Positions 48,949-57,989 of a stretch of DNA of 64,000 nt are shown here, piece by piece. Under the pieces are notes generated by a model. That model made no database searches. It was not told the DNA's origin and worked only from the letters and a program-made list of their open reading frames with translations. The stretch is from assembly GCA_002293535.1 (NCBI GenBank), contig DBDK01000008.1, forward strand, positions 311,654-375,653, in the 5' to 3' direction. The DNA comes from Alistipes sp. UBA934 (GTDB lineage: Bacteria > Bacteroidota > Bacteroidia > Bacteroidales > Rikenellaceae). A program made the position numbers and the translations under genes. The stretch's first letter is position 1. The number at the start of each line of letters is the position of its first letter.

Positions 48949-50427
48949 ATGAAAGCAGACATCGGCCTGATAGGGCTGGCGGTTATGGGCGAAAATCTCG
49001 TCCTGAATATGGAGAGCAAGGGTTTTCGTGTCGCCGTGTTTAACCGAACCACCTCCAAGGTGAAAACCTTCGTCGAAGGACGCGGAAAACTTAAAAAATT
49101 TAACCCGGCATACTCACTGGAGGAGCTCGTGGCCAATTTGGAGCGCCCACGAAAGGTGATGATGCTGGTGAAGGCGGGCTCGGCAGTAGATGATTTCATC
49201 GAACAACTCATCCCGTTGCTCGAACCGGGCGACGTGATCATCGACGGAGGAAACACCCACTTCCCGGATACCATCAGGCGTACGAAATACGTTGAGAGTA
49301 AGGGACTTCTATACATAGGCACGGGTGTTTCGGGCGGCGAAGAGGGAGCTCTGCTGGGCCCTTCGATGATGCCCGGAGGATCACCCGAAGCGTGGCCTCT
49401 GGTGAAACCTATTTTTCAGAGTATCAGCGCGAAAGTCGATGGGCAGCCCTGTTGCGACTGGGTTGGTTCGGATGGTGCAGGCCACTTCGTGAAGATGGTG
49501 CACAATGGCATCGAATATGGCGATATGCAGCTGATCTGTGAGGCCTATCAGATTATGCGCGACGGGCTGGGAATGACGGCGGGCGAGATGTCGGAGGTTT
49601 TCGGCGAGTGGAATCGCGGCGAACTGGACAGCTATCTCATTGAAATTACGAGAGATATACTCGCCTACAAGGACGCCGAGGGACAGTATGTTGTCGATCA
49701 TATTCTCGACGCGGCGGGTCAAAAGGGCACGGGCAAATGGACCGGTGTTTCGGCGCTGGAACTCGGTGTGCCTCTGACACTTATCGCCGAAGCTGTCTTC
49801 GCACGCTGCCTGTCGTCACAAAAAGATGAACGGGTTCTGGCAAGCCAAAGATTTACGGGGCCGGAGAACGCAGGGACTGGCTCGGCGGGCTCTGGGACGA
49901 GGGGTTTTGTGGGCGACCGTAAGGCGTTTTTGGATGACCTGCGACAAGCTCTATATGCCTCGAAGATAGTCTCTTACGCGCAAGGATATCTGCTGATGCG
50001 TGAGGCTGCCAAAGAGTATGGCTGGGCGCTGGATTACGGCTCGATAGCACTGATGTGGCGCGGGGGTTGCATAATCCGTTCGGCATTTTTGAGCAAGATC
50101 AAGGAGGCTTTCGAGCGCAACGGAGAACTAAGTAACTTGCTGATGGACAACTTCTTTGCCGAAAAAGTACAGGCCTCGCAAGCGGCGTGGCGCAGGGTTT
50201 TGGTGGCTGCAATGGAGGGCGGAATTCCGGTGCCGTCGATGGCCGCAGCACTGACATATTTCGATGGCTACAGATGCAAAAGCCTGCCAGCCAACCTGTT
50301 ACAAGCCCAAAGAGACTACTTCGGCGCCCACACCTACGAGCGCACGGACAGGCCAAGGGGCGAATTTTTCCACACCAACTGGACAGGACGCGGCGGCGAT
50401 ACAGCCTCCTCGGCATATAACGTATAG
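48949..50427 (+). CDS. gnd: NADP-dependent 6-phosphogluconate dehydrogenase (decarboxylating)
   Basis: 492 aa with the motifs [21 protein letters not shown] and [16 protein letters not shown]. Confidence 0.97.
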
Positions 50428-51290: not shown

Positions 51291-51298
51291 TATATTTG
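51291..51298 (+). promoter_or_regulatory. -7 box TATATTTG upstream of tRNA-Leu
   Basis: Matches TAnnTTTG and lies about 29 nt upstream of the tRNA 5' end. Confidence 0.45.
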
Positions 51299-51326: not shown

Positions 51327-51410
51327 GCCCAGGTGGTGGAATTGGTAGACACGCTACTTTGAGGGGGTAGTGCCGGTTACGGTGTGTGAGTTCAAATCTC
51401 GTCCTGGGTA
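51327..51410 (+). tRNA. tRNA-Leu (anticodon GAG)
   Basis: GCCCAGG pairs with CCTGGGT as the acceptor stem. The anticodon stem is CTACT/GGTAG with loop TTGAGGG (anticodon GAG). There is a long variable arm (TGCCGGTTACGGTGT) and the T-loop TTCAAAT. CCA is not encoded. Confidence 0.9.
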
Positions 51411-51411
51411 C
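51396..51411 (+). repeat. attL core (16-bp direct repeat, part of the tRNA 3' end)
   Basis: The sequence is identical to 57142-57157. Confidence 0.85.
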
Positions 51412-51458: not shown

Positions 51459-51489
51459 GTGTCCGCACGGTGTCCGCATTTTTGGAAAA
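51459..51489 (+). repeat. 31-bp repeat, copy 1 (gtgtccgcacggtgtccgcatttttggaaaa), itself a GTGTCCGCA doublet
   Basis: 29 of 31 positions are identical to 56997-57027, in the same orientation. Confidence 0.85.
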
Positions 51490-51621: not shown

Positions 51622-51846
51622 CTATGTGCTGAATGAAGTATGGATTATTATGCCATATCTCCTGGATTGAGCTATTAAATTACCAGAGGAAGGCGTATTT
51701 GCCATAAATGAGCAAGGATACATCTTCATATCCTCGGAGATAAACGCGCTAAATCTTGCTGCCTCACAAGATTCATACAAAAATGGCTTTGTGTTTAGGT
51801 TTTTCACTATCCCAGAAATGCTACAACTATCAAACCCTATCTTTAC
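51622..51846 (-). pseudogene. Remnant resembling the C-terminal SPASM/twitch segment of a radical SAM enzyme
   Basis: A 74-codon open frame reads VKIGFDSCSISGIVKNLNTKPFLYESCEAARFSAFISEDMKMYPCSF..., matching the Cx..A...x.I..dG.v.PC pattern. It is closed by a stop immediately upstream, and no radical-SAM core is present. Confidence 0.35.
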
Positions 51847-51916: not shown

Positions 51917-51924
51917 TATTTTTG
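51917..51924 (+). promoter_or_regulatory. -7 box TATTTTTG upstream of the three-gene cassette
   Basis: Matches TAnnTTTG and lies 65 nt upstream of the ATG at 51989. Confidence 0.4.
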
Positions 51925-51988: not shown

Positions 51989-52468
51989 ATGGTGCAAGTA
52001 GATAGCATCGCTAATTATGTAAGTGAGAATTTGTCCAGCACAAACGAAATGGCAGAGTCCATAATTCCAATATCCGACAAGATTACTCCCCTATTATGGC
52101 TACTGATAGCCAATATTGTAATTATCATTGCAAAATTTGTTACGGACAGTCGATTAAAGAAAAAAGATGTAAATGTTCACAGAAAAGGGTTGATAAATGA
52201 GTTCATAATAAACATCGAAAAGGAATTGTTTTATAGATTGGAAACATTATCTCGATTTGATGCCGATCAAACGGACGAGTTATTAGTTGAAATTTTAAAC
52301 ATCGAAACTTATTGTAGAATAAATAGAATTTTTTTACGAAAGAACGTCAGCAATGTAGCTATTAAAATATTGGACTACTACAAGGCTGTCTCTTCCAATT
52401 ATGCAAAAAAGGATATTAAGAAAGAAAATGAACTAATGGCTAAATACTCAGACAAGTTTTATGAATAA
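51989..52468 (+). CDS. Small membrane-anchored hypothetical protein (cassette gene A)
   Basis: 159 aa with a single hydrophobic helix (ITPLLWLLIANIVIIIAKFV) and no recognisable domain. It overlaps gene B by 8 nt (ATGAATAA). It is very AT-rich. Confidence 0.7.
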   Translation: MVQVDSIANYVSENLSSTNEMAESIIPISDKITPLLWLLIANIVIIIAKFVTDSRLKKKDVNVHRKGLINEFIINIEKELFYRLETLSRFDADQTDELLVEILNIETYCRINRIFLRKNVSNVAIKILDYYKAVSSNYAKKDIKKENELMAKYSDKFYE

Positions 52469-53408
52469 CCAATCTAATAAAATTACATTTCCCAGTCACA
52501 TAACAACAAATTCAATTTTGTCGTTAATACGGGCAATGAGTTTTGTTTTCAAGCTGAAGGATAGGATGGCGGCGAATTATGTTGTAGACATTTCTAACGT
52601 TAAAGAGATAAATATGTTAGGAGTGCTATTATTATGTAAATTTCTTGAATTTTCTATTTCACATAGATGCTTTTCGGAACCCCAATTAGGAATAAATGAT
52701 ATTGTTAAGGAGGCTATTGCAAAATATGGTTGTTTGTCCTTAGTACAATCCTTTATGAATCCCAAAGGAGACAATAGAAAAGAACTTGAATCGCTAAAGA
52801 CAAAAATACAAGACAATTTTATCATTGCCCCTAAGGCCCTATTACGGAATGATAGTTACTCTAAAGAATCACTCAACACAGATTATTTACCTGCAATTAA
52901 TGATTATTATAGTAATACTATTAAGGCGAGTGATATGATCTTACAGGTATTTTCAGAAATATTGTTGAATTTTTGGGAGCACGCAGTGGATGACACCCGT
53001 TCAATAATTATCGCTCACGGGACAAAAACAAATATCGAAATAGCCTGTATAGATACTGGGAATGGAATAAAGACCACACTTAGTGAAAACGTTAAGTTAA
53101 AAAAGAGTGAAAAATCAGACATCCTATTGTCCAAAGCTGTCCAAAAGGGCGTAACATCAAAAACGAATACAGATCATATGGGTTTTGGTCTATGGATTGT
53201 AGATGAGATAGTATCAAAGGTAGGAGGAAGATTGCGCCTTATTTCGGAAAGTTCTGCATATATAAATGATTCCGGAAAAAAGACTACCACAGGTTGCGAT
53301 TATTGGGGCGGTACTATAATTTATGTATATTTGCCATTAGAGAATCCTGTCACAATAGCTGATATTGAAAAAGGGAAGCAATTAAACGCAAAAATTTGTT
53401 GGATATGA
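52461..53408 (+). CDS. STAS-like N-terminal domain fused to a GHKL (HATPase_c) ATPase/kinase-like domain (cassette gene B)
   Basis: 315 aa. The N-terminal part (VVDISNVKEINMLGVLLLCKFLEF) is STAS-like. The Bergerat-fold motifs are the N-box EILLNFWEHA, G1 IDTGNGI and G2 MGFGLWIV. Confidence 0.75.
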   Translation: MNNQSNKITFPSHITTNSILSLIRAMSFVFKLKDRMAANYVVDISNVKEINMLGVLLLCKFLEFSISHRCFSEPQLGINDIVKEAIAKYGCLSLVQSFMNPKGDNRKELESLKTKIQDNFIIAPKALLRNDSYSKESLNTDYLPAINDYYSNTIKASDMILQVFSEILLNFWEHAVDDTRSIIIAHGTKTNIEIACIDTGNGIKTTLSENVKLKKSEKSDILLSKAVQKGVTSKTNTDHMGFGLWIVDEIVSKVGGRLRLISESSAYINDSGKKTTTGCDYWGGTIIYVYLPLENPVTIADIEKGKQLNAKICWI

Positions 53409-53704
53409 GAACAATAGAATTGAAAAAATATGCTCCGATAATAAGTGATAAGGAAATAGGAGCAGAAATCTTAGGGGAGATTAAAACGGTCCTCAATAGC
53501 GACAATGGTGTGATTATCGATATGCAGGATATTCGCTCTATGGCTACGTTTTGCGCGAAGCAAATCTTTGGTGCTCTATATGTAGAGATGGGTTCTGAGG
53601 ATTTTTTTAATAAAATACGTATAAAGTCCGCAACGGATGATGTTAAATACATCATCAATCTTGGAATAGAAAAAGCATTGGAAGACAATTCATTCCATCT
53701 CTAA
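53405..53704 (+). CDS. DUF4325-type STAS-like protein (cassette gene C)
   Basis: The ATG at 53405 overlaps the stop of gene B (ATGA). The protein is 99 aa, and NGVIIDMQDIRSMATFCAKQIFGALY resembles DUF4325. Confidence 0.7.
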   Translation: MRTIELKKYAPIISDKEIGAEILGEIKTVLNSDNGVIIDMQDIRSMATFCAKQIFGALYVEMGSEDFFNKIRIKSATDDVKYIINLGIEKALEDNSFHL

Positions 53705-53878
53705 ATCGTCCTCTTCGATGGCAATGACGTTTGCGAGATTCTGAACATCAGCAAACGCACTCTGCAAACCTATCGCGACAGTGGACGGCTGTCGTTTTCG
53801 AACATCGGCAACAAGATTTATTATAAGCCGACGGATGTGCAGAAAATTGTCGAAAGAGGGGAGGTGAGCGATGTATAG
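53705..53878 (+). pseudogene. 5'-truncated HTH_17/excisionase-like gene remnant
   Basis: It reads IVLFDGNDVCEILNISKRTLQTYRDSGRLSFSNIGNKIYYKPTDVQKIVERGEVSDV*. The first codon follows the gene C stop codon directly, and there is no in-frame ATG/GTG/TTG ahead of the HTH. Confidence 0.6.
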
Positions 53879-54137
53879 CAGCTACGACGTAATCACGATG
53901 GACAGTCCCGAAACGAAGAAATTCTTCGAGATGCTCGATAGGTTGTTCAAGCAAACAGAACAGCTGACCGATGTGGAACTATCTTTGCGTCTGAAAGCCA
54001 GCCGCCGAACCTTGCAGGAATGGCGCGATAAGGGTACGCTGTCGTTCTTCAAAATCGGTGGCAAAATCCTCTACCGCGAAAGCGATATCCAAAAACTCCT
54101 CAACAGAAATTACTTTAAGGCGTATAGAGATGTTTAG
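53871..54137 (+). CDS. Helix-turn-helix (excisionase/MerR-like HTH_17) protein
   Basis: 88 aa with the motif RRTLQEWRDKGTLSFFKIGGKILYRESDIQKLL. Confidence 0.8.
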   Translation: MYSSYDVITMDSPETKKFFEMLDRLFKQTEQLTDVELSLRLKASRRTLQEWRDKGTLSFFKIGGKILYRESDIQKLLNRNYFKAYRDV

Positions 54138-54186: not shown

Positions 54187-55443
54187 TTACGACTCCAACA
54201 GCCACTTCCAGACGGGGATCACTTCAATAGTTTTACCTTCAACCTCCAACATCCGCTCGGTGTCGCGGGTTATGATCACGAGCCGACGGCATTCCAATAC
54301 ATCGGAAATTTTGGCCAGTGCCTTCATCTCGCGATCCAACGTTCCGTCGGCATTGTCAAGATTGTAGCACACCTGAATTGCGGTATAGTTATCGGGGATA
54401 TAGAAATCGACCTCGATATTGTGGTTGTAAAAATATACGGCATCCTCCCGCCCGTATTTACGCAACAGGGTTACGGCGACAAGATTTTCCAAAAGAGAGG
54501 TCTCACCACCCATCAAAAAGAGATTCAGAATGCCATTGTCCGTGTAATAGTATTTTTGCGAGCTCTCCTTGTCGACCAACTTACTCGCTATGTTTTGCAC
54601 GGGAGAAATGAGCCACGCATCTTTGGCGTACTCCATATAGTTAATCACCGTCTGTGTCCCGATCTTCGCGCCGGTCGATGATATGATGTTTGCTATTCGG
54701 GTAAACGATAAAGGTTGCTTTATGCTTTCGGCCAACTTTTTGAACATCACTCGCAGGGCGAAGGTGTTCTCTATATTGTTACGTGCAGCGATATCACCCA
54801 AGTAGATTTTTTGATAGGTGCTGGTCAGGTAGTCGCGCTTTACTGCAAGCGAGGCTCCTTCGGGGAATCCGCCGAAATAGAAGTAGTCATTGAATTTCCG
54901 CAGCACTTCGGCACGTCCCTCCGTGGAGATTAAATCCACGGGCGTGTCGTTCGCCGTCAAAAACTCTTTGAACGAATAAGGATAAACATCGGCGGTTATA
55001 TAGCGGCTACCGAGCGTAGTTTGAATCTCCTTGCTCAACATTTTTGCGTTGCTTCCCGTTATGTAAACCCTGTGCTTGGTGTCGGCCATCCGGCGGGCAA
55101 ACTTCTCCCAGCCGGTGATGTTCTGTATCTCGTCGAGAAAAAGCATAGGCTTCTTTCCATACATCTCCAAGTGCACCTCCAACAACAGGTTCAGATCTGC
55201 GGCGGTCATTCCGGTAAGGCGTTCGTCCTCAAAGTTTATGTATAGCATCTCGTCCCAACCGGTACCCCCTGCGAGAAGCTGCTGCATCCTTTGGTAGAGC
55301 AGAAACGACTTTCCGGCCCGCCTGATGCCGACAAAGACGTAATTGCCGAATTCCTCGAAAGTGAAGTCTCGGGGAACAACGTTGAACTTAGGAACTTCCG
55401 CCTGATTGTCTGCAATGACCGATTTTAAGATTTCTCTGTCCAT
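54187..55443 (-). CDS. AAA_14 ATPase with C-terminal DUF4143 domain
   Basis: The start is at MDREILKSVI (ATG 55441-55443). It has Walker A GIRRAGKS and Walker B MLFLDEIQ, followed by a DUF4143-like C-terminal half. Confidence 0.85.
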   Translation of the reverse strand: MDREILKSVIADNQAEVPKFNVVPRDFTFEEFGNYVFVGIRRAGKSFLLYQRMQQLLAGGTGWDEMLYINFEDERLTGMTAADLNLLLEVHLEMYGKKPMLFLDEIQNITGWEKFARRMADTKHRVYITGSNAKMLSKEIQTTLGSRYITADVYPYSFKEFLTANDTPVDLISTEGRAEVLRKFNDYFYFGGFPEGASLAVKRDYLTSTYQKIYLGDIAARNNIENTFALRVMFKKLAESIKQPLSFTRIANIISSTGAKIGTQTVINYMEYAKDAWLISPVQNIASKLVDKESSQKYYYTDNGILNLFLMGGETSLLENLVAVTLLRKYGREDAVYFYNHNIEVDFYIPDNYTAIQVCYNLDNADGTLDREMKALAKISDVLECRRLVIITRDTERMLEVEGKTIEVIPVWKWLLES

Positions 55444-55471
55444 AACCTCCCGTTTTATTTTATCGACAAAA

Positions 55472-55479
55472 CAAAGATA
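55472..55479 (-). promoter_or_regulatory. -7 box TATCTTTG upstream of the AAA_14 gene
   Basis: The reverse complement of caaagata. It lies 29 nt upstream of the ATG. Confidence 0.4.
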
Positions 55480-55565
55480 ATGCATTTTTGTTTTACCGAC
55501 AAAACAATATTGAATTATTTTTGTTTTGTAGGTAGAACATGCTTAATAGAGTCACATAGATATGC

Positions 55566-56936
55566 CTAATCCAAAAACCCTATCAACTCCTTCTTCATCT
55601 CCTCGTCGATGTCGCGGTAGCGGGCAAAGGCTTTCGAGCCTTCTTTGTGGCCGGAGAGTGCACCCACGAGGTTTGGGTCTTTGACCTGTTTGTAGATATT
55701 CCCGATGAAACTGCGGCGAGCCATGTGGGACGAGGCCACCTCATAAATAGGTTTTTGTACCTCCTGCCGGGTGCGCTGGTCGATGACCGTCACCATTCTG
55801 TCAAGCCCCGCCCGCTCGAACGCCTCCTTTATATTGTCGTTATACTTCTGCGACGAAATGAACGGCAACAAGCTCTCGCGCTCCGGGTCGCGGTAACGCT
55901 CCATAATCTCCTTTGCCGTCTCGCTCAACGGAACTCGTACCGTCTGCACCCGATCCTCTTTCGTCTTTTTGGGGATGTACTCGATGGCTCCGTTTATGAC
56001 ATTCTTCCAAGTAAACTTCATAAGATCACTAACCCGACAACCGATCAGACATTGAAAAACGAAAATGTCCCTCTGCACGGCCAACGACGGAGTGGCTGAC
56101 ATGTCAGCCTCGTAAAGTTTTTTCCTTTCATCGTTGCTGATATAGATAGGGGTACCGTACACGCTTTCGCCGACCGAGTACCCTTTGAATGGGTTGTTGG
56201 TCGTGTAGCCGTTATCGTTCGCCCAGATGATGAACGACCGGAACCGCGTCATCATATCCGAAATGTAGTTTTGCCCTCGCTCCCTCGGTGCTCCGGTCGG
56301 TGTCTTCCGGGGGCGATGGGTCTTCGGAGCTTGCTTTACGGAATAGGGCACTGCCTCGTATATCTCCGGGTACTTCTTGAACACCTCATGCTCGTTGGTC
56401 AGGAAGTCCTCGATGTCCTCCAACTGCTCATAGGACAGCGTGCCGATGTTCAGTTTGAAAGTCCGGTTACCGGTCGCCCGTTTGTACAACTCATAACGCT
56501 TAATACAGCGTACTAACACGTTGAAGTGTTTTGTACGGGACTCCGACAGCTTGTGTTTCGCCAGATAGTCGGCCATGATGTCGAAAAAGTCTTTAATTCG
56601 CTCTTTCGTGGTCTTCGATGGCTTGTGGAATTTTTTCACAAGCCTATCCATCCAATCTTTGGTAAGGACGCTCTTGTCGGTCGCCGAATTTATCTCGGCC
56701 TCAATCAAATCAGTAAGAGCTTTCAGTCTGGCTCTTTTCTCCAGTAGCGCGTCTCGCTCATCGCCGGGCGTGAGCGGAACATTAATGTCGTTTTTCTTAC
56801 CCCACCGCTTACGGTCGAGCCAAATCCCGGATGCAACCCGCAAACGAATATCGCGCGAAACATAGAGCCGGAGATGTATCTGCGATTCACCTGCGCTGTT
56901 GGTCGATTTTGTGAGGACATAGTTTGTTTGAGCCAT
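55566..56936 (-). CDS. Tyrosine-type site-specific integrase (Bacteroidota Arm-DNA-binding + SAM-like + catalytic domains)
   Basis: The start is at MAQTNYVLTKST (ATG 56934-56936). The catalytic residues lie in GCRVSDL, HMARRSF and AFARYRD. A TACCTTTG box sits at 56961-56968 on the minus strand. Confidence 0.92.
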   Translation of the reverse strand: MAQTNYVLTKSTNSAGESQIHLRLYVSRDIRLRVASGIWLDRKRWGKKNDINVPLTPGDERDALLEKRARLKALTDLIEAEINSATDKSVLTKDWMDRLVKKFHKPSKTTKERIKDFFDIMADYLAKHKLSESRTKHFNVLVRCIKRYELYKRATGNRTFKLNIGTLSYEQLEDIEDFLTNEHEVFKKYPEIYEAVPYSVKQAPKTHRPRKTPTGAPRERGQNYISDMMTRFRSFIIWANDNGYTTNNPFKGYSVGESVYGTPIYISNDERKKLYEADMSATPSLAVQRDIFVFQCLIGCRVSDLMKFTWKNVINGAIEYIPKKTKEDRVQTVRVPLSETAKEIMERYRDPERESLLPFISSQKYNDNIKEAFERAGLDRMVTVIDQRTRQEVQKPIYEVASSHMARRSFIGNIYKQVKDPNLVGALSGHKEGSKAFARYRDIDEEMKKELIGFLD

Positions 56937-56996
56937 CTTTACTACCGTTATTTGTTTCCTCAAAGGTACGGCTATTTTCGGGAAAAACAAATTTTC

Positions 56997-57027
56997 GTGT
57001 CCGCACCGTGTCCGCATTTTTGAAAAA
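56997..57027 (+). repeat. 31-bp repeat, copy 2 (gtgtccgcaccgtgtccgcatttttgaaaaa)
   Basis: 29 of 31 positions are identical to 51459-51489. It lies just upstream of the integrase promoter. Confidence 0.85.
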
Positions 57028-57141
57028 CGGCCAAAATTGCACCCGAACACATTCAATCAAAAACAATTATAAAATACTATTCTTCAATATATTATAAAAT
57101 TGTTTCGATTTTGAAGTTTTGGAAGCATTTGCATTCTGCGT

Positions 57142-57157
57142 ATCTCGTCCTGGGTAC
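57142..57157 (+). repeat. attR core (16-bp direct repeat)
   Basis: The sequence is identical to 51396-51411. Confidence 0.85.
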
Positions 57158-57159
57158 GG

Positions 57160-57195
57160 AAAAATAAGGGGAGCATAAATGCTCCCCTTATTTTT
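57160..57195. terminator. Strong bidirectional rho-independent terminator abutting attR
   Basis: aaaataaggggagca pairs with tgctccccttatttt to form a near-perfect ~16-bp stem with a 4-nt loop. It is U-rich on both strands and lies 20 nt downstream of the 57216-57989 gene. Confidence 0.75.
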
Positions 57196-57215: not shown

Positions 57216-57989
57216 TTAGTGTTTTATGATGTGAACCATCACATTTTCACTATTTTCGAACGACTGTTTGAATTTATCGACATCCCGAATAGTGCTTATG
57301 TCGTAAACGATGAATAAAACACTTGGAAATTGTGTCTTATAAGCTAATATGTCATCGTTTAGCTGTTGAATAAGTGCTTTTTCATTTTCGTTACACAATT
57401 TGACCTCAACGGCTAAACCGATATTGTCGAAACTGAAATCGGGAATATACTCTTTGGAAGAATATTGTATATGAGGAGATTCCCTATTGTAATCTATCTC
57501 TGCCCCAATCAACAAATTCTCAAAGCTATCTTGAATTTCCTTTTCTCGCGTGGGTTGTGTCCGTATGGTTTTTCGCAATTTGTTTTCCGACAGAGAAAGA
57601 ACTTTCATAAGATCATTTGTGGCGTTTTTATTGCTCGGTGCTGTATAAACATCGTTTATAGAGTGATTTTCCAAATAATCTTTTGCGGCTAAAAGATATC
57701 CTTTAGCAATGCCGAGTTGCTCAATATATGCGTCTTGATTAAGGCGTTCCTTCTCTCCCTCAAAATCCCAAGCCTCAACTATGTAGCTGCCGGTAAAGCG
57801 CCAAGGAAGACTTTTAATATTGGCAAAATGAATCGAATCACTACCAAATACCTCATTCAAAAAGACAAGTGTATTAGTTAGCCATCGAGTATGTTCGGTT
57901 GATAATCTTTCGACCTGTTTTAGAGCATCTATCTCTGCTATAAGATTATCCAAACAATCCAATGCAGCTTCTTTTGTCCATTTTCCCAT
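57216..57989 (-). CDS. Hypothetical protein with C-terminal PD-(D/E)xK nuclease-like motifs
   Basis: 257 aa and AT-rich. The C-terminal part reads EKEIQDSFENLL ... IPDFSF ... GLAVEVKL ... VLFIVYD, which fits the E / D / ExK restriction-endonuclease-fold pattern. Confidence 0.65.
   Translation of the reverse strand: MGKWTKEAALDCLDNLIAEIDALKQVERLSTEHTRWLTNTLVFLNEVFGSDSIHFANIKSLPWRFTGSYIVEAWDFEGEKERLNQDAYIEQLGIAKGYLLAAKDYLENHSINDVYTAPSNKNATNDLMKVLSLSENKLRKTIRTQPTREKEIQDSFENLLIGAEIDYNRESPHIQYSSKEYIPDFSFDNIGLAVEVKLCNENEKALIQQLNDDILAYKTQFPSVLFIVYDISTIRDVDKFKQSFENSENVMVHIIKH

Follow-up and report, generated by a model that had tools for sequence, protein, structure and literature searches.

A mobile three-gene cassette in an Alistipes genome joins a VapK-like kinase and a DUF4325 STAS protein to a single-pass membrane protein: a candidate conflict module

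Two recently described bacterial systems combine a STAS+GHKL kinase with a STAS partner protein. The CapK/CapS pairs respond to DNA damage and regulate immune operons, CBASS and Bub among them: CapK, a kinase with a helix-turn-helix (HTH)-STAS-GHKL architecture, reacts to the appearance of single-stranded DNA (ssDNA) by phosphorylating a conserved serine of the STAS-winged-HTH repressor CapS, and this modification, at the start of helix 2, switches the binding activity of CapS (PMC13373217). In VapKSC, the STAS+GHKL kinase VapK is encoded together with the STAS antitoxin VapS and the PIN domain toxin VapC; VapK is proposed to phosphorylate VapS and so to release VapC, a phospho-mimic at Ser48 of VapS frees the toxin, the C-terminal helix of VapS reaches the active site of VapC and blocks it, and the system protected E. 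coli from a phage (Chambers et al., EMBO J 2026; PMC13373217). An aromatic residue in the STAS domain of the kinase binds ssDNA, as shown for Trp68 of CapK and predicted for Phe54 of VapK (PMC13373217). Here we describe a cassette of three genes, denoted A, B and C, that is located in a 64,000-nucleotide stretch (hereafter, the window) of contig DBDK01000008.1 of Alistipes sp. UBA934, a contig from a termite-gut metagenome, and in which relatives of VapK and VapS are preceded by a gene for a small membrane protein. What is already known in this cassette is the kinase/STAS pair; what is new is the membrane protein A in place of the PIN nuclease.

The three co-directional open reading frames (ORFs) are on the plus strand, at 51989..52468 (gene A, 159 aa, the proposed membrane effector), 52461..53408 (gene B, 315 aa, a VapK-like kinase) and 53405..53704 (gene C, 99 aa counted from the ATG, with a TTG upstream at position 53396; a single-domain DUF4325 STAS protein like VapS). 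These are exactly the ORFs reported in an initial annotation made from the letters of the window, and both start/stop overlaps that it listed are present as well, namely ATGAATAA at 52461-52468 between A and B and ATGA at 53405-53408 between B and C. The cassette had also appeared, by eye, to be more AT-rich than both the chromosome and the rest of the tRNA-associated islet that carries it, and the computed GC content agrees: 33.6% in the cassette, 47.9% in the remaining islet and 53-54% in the flanking chromosome, that is, the cassette is 20 points below its host. We propose that A-B-C is a self-contained, horizontally mobile phospho-switch module, to be placed in one superfamily with CapK/CapS and VapKSC.

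Judging from sequence and profile comparisons, B and C are homologous to VapK and VapS. The sequences of VapK and VapS used here were hand-transcribed from the deposited model file of the original paper, and their Pfam matches and alignments are as expected. When the B family was compared, using hhalign, with a profile of VapK and three phage kinases, the match extended over nearly the entire protein (98.8%, E 9e-17, 256 columns, B residues 9-291), and BLASTP aligned B with VapK in the GHKL domain at 27% identity across 143 aa (E 2e-5). C and VapS both match Pfam DUF4325 (E 4e-9 for C, the family to which it had been initially assigned, and E 2.7e-17 for VapS), and BLASTP aligns them with E 1e-5, ungapped around the acceptor, so that Thr48 of C (codon at 53546-53548) is aligned to Ser48 of VapS. 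This threonine, the proposed phospho-acceptor, is invariant in 42 of the 42 unique C homologs, within the almost invariant motif S-M-A-T-F-C-A-K-Q-I-F-G. A sequence search of the PDB with C returned nothing at E up to 10.

The B protein consists of an N-terminal STAS-like domain (residues ~6-100, 52476-52760) and a GHKL ATP-binding domain (residues 158-294, 52932-53342; Pfam HATPase_c, E 5e-10), the very two parts that were recognized in the initial annotation, and the N-box, G1 and G2 motifs quoted there are present and conserved. In particular, the N-box with Asn170 (52968-52970), the G1 motif D198xGxG and the G2 motif H239-M-G-x-G-L-W are kept in essentially every homolog that has those positions, and E166, N170, H174, D198, G200, G202, G241 and G243 are conserved in all 42 unique homologs with a residue there. 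The conservation of these catalytic residues of B, along with that of Thr48 of C, indicates that the chemistry of the pair is subject to purifying selection. The assignment of the N-terminal domain rests on the full-length profile homology to VapK-type kinases and on the topology predicted by AlphaFold2, in which residues 6-100 form a beta-alpha-beta-alpha-beta-alpha-alpha succession that fits the STAS fold (predicted local distance difference test score, pLDDT, 79; predicted template modelling score, pTM, 0.83); the alignments behind this model and behind that of A considered below are shallow (24 and 11 sequences). The assignment does not come from any likeness to C, given that the comparison of the N-terminal 118 residues of B with the C (DUF4325) family is not significant (E 0.07-0.12), with a local match of only 14 columns around a beta-strand and loop. 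The relatives of B in the database, 189 altogether, are all ~310-320 aa long and 42-50% identical, and phrog_3364, a family of unknown function, matches B over its full length (E 3e-22); a PDB sequence search with the B profile yielded chance matches only (CTB10, E ~0.5). B does not belong with two-component histidine kinases because there is no HisKA/DHp domain and no response regulator in the cassette: B gave no match to HisKA and carries the ATP-binding domain alone, its weak matches to NCBIfam histidine-kinase models are confined to the ATP-binding part, and no receiver domain was found in A, B or C.

So how close is the cassette to the systems already described? The likeness to VapKSC is the most extensive: both are three-gene operons without a phosphatase, both pair a STAS+GHKL kinase with a DUF4325 STAS protein that has a Ser/Thr acceptor at the same aligned position, and both are found near defence genes and on mobile DNA. 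The third gene is different, a PIN nuclease in VapKSC and a single-pass membrane protein in the cassette, and no PIN domain was detected in A, B or C or among the 25 most frequent Pfam families in the flanks of the homologous genome loci described below. Furthermore, the ssDNA-binding aromatic, Phe54, which is invariant in VapK and the three phage kinases, has as its aligned counterpart in B a non-aromatic residue, Glu49, at a position that holds E, Q, K, V, S or D across the B family, although this pairing comes from the profile alignment of a divergent region and is made with moderate confidence. The host range of A-B-C, mainly Bacteroidota, is unlike that of VapKSC as well. Thus, with no PIN toxin, a different gene order and the aromatic not conserved, the cassette falls outside VapKSC proper on three counts. 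The B/C pair is also similar to CapK/CapS, where a STAS+GHKL kinase is likewise paired with a STAS partner bearing a conserved acceptor at the start of helix 2, but CapK has an extra N-terminal HTH domain and CapS a C-terminal winged helix, neither of which was detected by Pfam in B or C. In addition, CapK/CapS are encoded directly upstream of the immune operon that they regulate, whereas C precedes an HTH_17 pseudogene in the window and unrelated genes in other genomes. Finally, SpoIIAB/SpoIIAA and RsbW/RsbV share with B/C the combination of a GHKL serine kinase and a single-domain STAS substrate. Those systems come with a sigma factor and a PP2C phosphatase, neither of which is found among the 25 most frequent Pfam families of the 176 flanking genes of A-B-C loci; as initially noted, no sigma factor is encoded with the cassette in the islet, where a PP2C phosphatase is likewise missing, and no sigma factor recurs beside the homologous loci. 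Also unlike in these switches, B carries its own STAS-like domain, and the module is mobile and patchily distributed. The initial view that this architecture matches no named system has been overtaken by the publication of CapK/CapS and VapKSC in 2026, and what we did not encounter in the literature searched is a kinase/STAS module with a membrane effector.

The A protein, in which the initial annotation had seen one hydrophobic helix and no recognizable domain, indeed has a single predicted transmembrane helix (approximately residues 32-51, mean hydropathy 2.4), with the polar Asn42 inside it. The short N-terminal tail before this helix is poorly conserved; after the helix come a basic stretch and ~100 residues that form a helical domain. 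In the AlphaFold2 model (pLDDT 80 overall, >90 in the bundle), a long helix, residues 28-89, extends out of the membrane and forms a bundle together with three more helices. The bundle is the best-conserved part of the protein, with Asp129-Tyr130 invariant and Glu146 nearly so in the family alignment, and position 42 within the membrane helix is always polar (N, S or D). The segment outside the membrane comprises ~20-30 poorly conserved residues in most members. Three longer members of the family (P0228, P0236 and P0260, 198-206 aa) have a signal-peptide-like start and ~60 extra residues before the membrane helix, which suggests, on sequence features, an outside-facing segment in this subset. 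In 32 of 42 sequences, the membrane helix has more positive charge at its C-terminal flank than at its N-terminal one, and this bias, taken together with the signal-peptide-like starts of some homologs, predicts that the bundle is cytoplasmic and, accordingly, that A could meet C. An exhaustive search of 1.84 billion representatives delineated the A family as 207 clusters, almost all of them stand-alone proteins of 140-165 aa, compared with 2 matches (single sequence) or 12 (profile) in a word-indexed homology search. A 430-aa protein with an A-like C-terminus (P0210) looks like a chimeric gene call and not a real fusion. When the A model was compared with the PDB using Foldseek, nothing significant was found, the best matches (E 1.4) being generic four-helix bundles, including HPt proteins; an HPt role is ruled out by the absence of a conserved histidine in the family. 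Against BFVD, an uncharacterised Siphoviridae protein ranked first (E 0.016).

The case for treating the three genes as a unit comes from their recurrence, which had been posed as a question at the outset and is now documented in two sets of homologous loci, 33 from a scan of one genome per species and 16 from predicted viral contigs of IMG/VR. The genome loci are mainly from Bacteroidota (Cytophagales, Chitinophagales, Flavobacteriales, Sphingobacteriales and Bacteroidales), along with one each from Balneola, Lachnospiraceae and Spirochaetota and a truncated contig of a Bosea metagenome-assembled genome. In 32 of the 32 genome loci with upstream DNA, in 16 of the 16 viral loci and in the window, B is immediately preceded by an A-like gene whose end overlaps or abuts the start of B; being found before B wherever upstream DNA exists, A appears to be an integral part of the module. 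At the stop of B, a C-like gene is found in 32 of 33 genome loci, the exception being a short contig with a truncated B, and in all 16 viral loci; the two genes overlap or are separated by a few bases everywhere except in one locus (L016), with a 37-nt gap. The order A-B-C is the same in every complete locus examined, so that the arrangement cannot be put down to chance. In locus L030 (8001-8928), B is split into two overlapping ORFs and in L028 a short B lacks C; these may be decaying copies or assembly errors.

Little else accompanies the triad. The most recurrent families in the flanks of the genome loci, where genes were called with a simple longest-ORF heuristic and matches counted per family and not per locus, are Epimerase, Polysacc_synt_2 and the like, i.e. 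mostly housekeeping genes, and in some genomes the triad stands alone among such genes, for example, between ribosomal-protein genes and ffh. On the viral contigs, the neighbors include an integrase, CI/Cro-type HTH proteins, an antirepressor, Rad52 and SSB, which places the triad in the lysogeny/early region, the usual site of prophage accessory genes. Defence models matched by some chromosomal neighbors are bSEFIR (twice), PD-T7-4, a DRT-type reverse transcriptase, DolB and several PADLOC candidates. The link of the triad to viruses rests on the IMG/VR contigs; tblastn gave no match when 50,697 phage genomes were searched with B and C, or 72,556 plasmids with B.

Taken together, these observations make it quite probable that A-B-C is a conflict module of the VapKSC type. 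A conflict role had already been suggested in the initial annotation, and that suggestion is strengthened by the homology to VapKSC, by carriage on an integrative element and on the 16 viral contigs, and by the lack of a recurring neighbor. In particular, with no sigma factor, phosphatase or other gene recurring beside the triad, no output other than A is at hand, and a mobile, conflict-type context is indicated by the location of the cassette on a tRNA-integrated element next to a gene of the PADLOC candidate system PDC-S01 and on prophage-like contigs. As for the specific wiring, we favor, by analogy with VapKSC, a scheme in which C restrains the membrane effector A until B phosphorylates C, although in our judgement this scheme could equally well prove right or wrong. 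In a resting cell, C would be bound to the cytoplasmic helical bundle of A, keeping A inert. A stress or infection signal would then activate B, which would transfer phosphate to Thr48 of C, at the start of STAS helix 2; phosphorylated C would let go of A, and free A would assemble in the membrane through the helix with the conserved polar residue, damaging or depolarising the membrane and causing growth arrest or death before the phage cycle is completed. Having no phosphatase, the switch would be one-way, which suits an abortive-infection or growth-arrest output. We infer that B phosphorylates C, that C binds A and that A is toxic, as well as the trigger and the anti-phage outcome, and the part of membrane effector is ascribed to A by its position in the operon and by analogy. 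A possible precedent for such an effector comes from the CRISPR-associated protein Cam1, which has an N-terminal membrane helix and a cytoplasmic domain that takes a cyclic-nucleotide signal, upon which the helices assemble to depolarise the membrane. The resemblance of A to Cam1 is one of general logic and is an analogy only, with no sequence or structural similarity found; furthermore, Cam1 is gated by a cyclic nucleotide whereas A is proposed to be gated by release from a phosphorylatable partner.

Several facts weigh against this scenario and should be considered together. Searches of A against Pfam, NCBIfam, PHROGs and PADLOC gave no match, no known toxin, holin or pore resembling A was found by sequence or structure searches, and the protein has just a single membrane helix. 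Neither is the rest of the cassette represented among catalogued defence genes: in PADLOC-DB v2.0.0, B has 0 matches and C just a weak local match to DrmA (E 0.0027), and the proximity of the triad to defence genes on chromosomes is a suggestive signal at best. C consists of the STAS domain only and lacks the C-terminal helix or extension with which VapS blocks its toxin. The gene order, effector-kinase-STAS in all loci, is not the kinase-STAS-toxin order of vapKSC. Finally, phages carry two-gene kinase-STAS (K-S) modules with no obvious effector, so that K-S may have an output of its own, with A as an accessory.

The lack of the VapS-like helix in C also speaks for an alternative wiring, which keeps A as the membrane effector but inverts the connections. 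The initial annotation invoked classic partner switching, in which the kinase sequesters the target; this is now one of two possible wirings, and the one not used by the characterised relative, which employs a STAS antitoxin. Under a SpoIIAB-type switch, B would hold A, and unphosphorylated C would displace it: as long as ATP is ample, C would be kept phosphorylated and inert, and a drop in ATP upon infection or stress would leave unphosphorylated C to capture B and free A. Such an arrangement fits the adjacency of A and B, with their overlapping stop and start codons, the fact that B weakly matches HATPase_c_2, a model of anti-sigma kinases, and the structural neighborhood of the GHKL domain of B, which in Foldseek comparisons is closest to SpoIIAB and RsbW (template modelling, TM, scores 0.53-0.68 normalised to the target), SpoIIAB being the nearest (TM 0.66-0.68 on the target). 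We nevertheless consider it unlikely. In VapKSC, the sole characterised toxin-bearing relative, the toxin is bound by the STAS protein and not by the kinase; no phosphatase is there to reset the switch; and SpoIIAB and RsbW lack B's N-terminal STAS domain.

The K-S pairs of phages raise a different possibility, namely that B itself is toxic, either as a promiscuous Ser/Thr kinase or as an ATP-burning GHKL ATPase, with C as its decoy substrate and antitoxin. A would then be a membrane anchor tethering the pair or a sensor triggering it, for instance, by sensing envelope perturbation at phage entry. We found such pairs in three temperate phages, Burkholderia phage vB_E188 (locus L055), Marinitoga phage MPV1 (L056) and Streptococcus phage Javan140 (L057), each consisting of a VapK-like kinase of ~300-320 aa followed by an overlapping STAS gene of ~100-120 aa; the pair adjoins an integrase in the first two and a lysin in the third. 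No PIN gene, A-like gene or recognisable effector is found alongside. Each kinase has an acidic tail whose last residue is tryptophan (..EEFSW, ..DEEW, ..EFEW), and the B family likewise ends in I-N-W/F. That in vB_E188 and Javan140 the pair has neither a membrane protein nor a nuclease next to it, and that MPV1 has the pair too, though flanked by other genes, speaks for this reading. The signal-peptide-like start and the ~60-residue outside segment of some A homologs would suit a sensor, and the fact that the ssDNA-binding aromatic is not conserved in B implies that the signal may come from elsewhere, possibly from A. Still, we doubt this explanation: the ~20-30 outside residues of most A proteins are too few for a typical sensor domain, conservation in A is highest in the cytoplasmic bundle, and neither CapK nor VapK has been reported to be toxic in itself. 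In the Francisella prophage vB_FhiM_KIRK, the gene table has three consecutive entries near the integrase: a hypothetical protein of 293 aa, a DUF4325 protein of 112 aa and a transmembrane hypothetical protein of 125 aa (PMC7924643). Judging from this table, the trio may amount to an independent combination of kinase, STAS and membrane protein, ordered K-S-TM.

Returning to the favored reading, in which A is a conflict effector restrained by C, a further question is whether the cell or the mobile element is the beneficiary. The triad might serve the maintenance of a prophage or element, through superinfection exclusion, lysis timing or post-segregational killing, instead of defending the cell. 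All 16 viral-contig triads are near lysogeny and early genes, the triad in the window is the cargo of an integrative element, and L031, a divergent A-like protein, matches a holin family below threshold (E 0.037). This match is not significant, however, and many chromosomal copies of the triad have no mobile-element genes within 8 kb; given also that the mechanism overlaps the one proposed above and differs mainly in who benefits, we regard maintenance as a distinctly improbable explanation. An ordinary signalling role without any part in conflict, with A as a membrane sensor and B/C as a partner-switching pair whose target, a sigma factor or regulator of the host, is encoded elsewhere, can draw on the fact that STAS and GHKL pairs are classic sigma-factor regulators and on the many genomes in which the triad is embedded among housekeeping genes. 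We consider it equally improbable, given the patchy distribution and the movement between phyla (Bacteroidota, Lachnospiraceae, Spirochaetota, the Bosea contig), the carriage on an integrative element and on prophage-like contigs, the GC content in the window, 20 points below the host, the lack of any recurring sigma factor, phosphatase or regulator nearby, and the expectation that a module dependent on a host-specific trans target would not transfer so freely.

The kinase/STAS switch is a recent addition to bacterial immunity, where it is known to serve transcriptional regulation in CapK/CapS and a toxin-antitoxin in VapKSC; a membrane protein would be its third output and would support the notion of the K-S pair as a portable sensor to which different effectors can be attached. 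To our knowledge, few defence systems have been experimentally tested in Bacteroidota, and the cassette provides a candidate from this phylum, including gut and termite-gut lineages and temperate phages, while giving the A family, some 200 clusters without known relatives, a concrete, testable role. The missing DNA-binding aromatic in B raises the question of what other signals are sensed by this kinase family. Going one step further, we tentatively entertain the possibility that A founds a new family of STAS-gated membrane effectors and that B, lacking this aromatic, reads a signal other than ssDNA, possibly the membrane or energy state by way of A. In that case, A-B-C would be the first kinase/STAS partner switch to control a membrane toxin, and Bacteroidota and their prophages would have a hitherto unrecognised system of defence or abortive infection.

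The element that carries the cassette is 5.7 kb long, is bracketed by 16-nt direct repeats and encodes a tyrosine integrase. Its integration target is a tRNA-Leu(GAG) gene (51327..51411, plus strand; ARAGORN, Rfam tRNA 45 bits). The left attachment (att) repeat, ATCTCGTCCTGGGTAC at 51396..51411 on the plus strand, is the last 16 nt of this tRNA gene, and the right one, an exact second copy of ATCTCGTCCTGGGTAC at 57142..57157 on the same strand, is the displaced 3' end of the tRNA. At up to 3 mismatches, the 16-nt repeat has 3 matches in the window against 0.46 expected, two of them exact and the third, at 48995-49010, with 3 mismatches. A GC-rich hairpin at 57166-57189, followed by a T run, lies downstream of the right repeat and is probably the original terminator of the tRNA gene. 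Inside the two ends, a repeat search detected a 32-nt repeat (94% identity) that contains a tandem GTGTCCGCA pair, at 51459..51478 (plus strand) and, in direct orientation, at 56997..57016; by inference of function, these pairs may be candidate arm-type binding sites of the integrase. The integrase gene adjoins the right end (55566..57056, minus strand; Pfam Phage_integrase and Phage_int_SAM_5; in the public gene call, the product is 456 aa, with a start near 56936).

Within this element, the cassette is a cargo within a cargo. A 5'-truncated HTH_17 pseudogene without a start codon (53705..53872, plus strand; translation matching Pfam HTH_17, E 5.8e-12) begins immediately past the C stop codon and in the frame of C, and the GC content steps from 0.30 to 0.49 at 53700, the right junction of the low-GC cassette; the pseudogene and the GC step together indicate that the AT-rich cassette is a later insertion or replacement in an older element. 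An intact HTH_17, excisionase-like gene follows (53871..54137, plus strand; Pfam HTH_17, E 1e-10; NCBIfam excisionase domain, E 3e-5) and then, on the minus strand, a gene for an AAA_14/DUF4143 ATPase (54187..55485; Pfam; PADLOC PDC-S01, E 1.7e-95). Because PDC-S01 is a PADLOC candidate single-gene system, the element carries two candidate defence cargos.

Upstream of A, the match to the Bacteroidota -7 motif TAnnTTTG reported in the initial annotation, TATTTTTG at 51917..51924 on the plus strand, is present 65 nt 5' of the A start. TAnnTTTG is enriched throughout the window (71 sites against 27 expected), as befits a Bacteroidota host that uses a -7 promoter motif. The exact motif, however, was found upstream of A homologs in 11 of 41 loci against a background of 15%, which is unconvincing as conservation, so that TATTTTTG can be considered a plausible promoter and nothing more. 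Another copy of TAnnTTTG starts at 51291, 29 nt upstream of the tRNA-Leu gene. A sigma-70 promoter/terminator scan and an Rfam scan of the islet detected nothing except the tRNA. In the AT-rich leader between the tRNA and A, a 61-aa ORF on the minus strand (51622-51807) has a Cys pattern like that of the SPASM iron-sulfur domain; this identity is not established (Pfam E 0.18), and the ORF may be a gene fragment brought in along with the cassette.

Of the islet neighbors initially listed, the AAA_14/DUF4143 ATPase is indeed inside, whereas the PD-(D/E)xK-like gene is outside the right att repeat and hence not part of the islet. The latter, at 57216..57989 on the minus strand, encodes a 257-aa DpnII/MboI-like restriction endonuclease (Pfam E 7e-7) with weak PADLOC matches to PDC-S35 and the Aga helical-REase, lies in a region of 36% GC, and may be the remnant of a separate acquisition.

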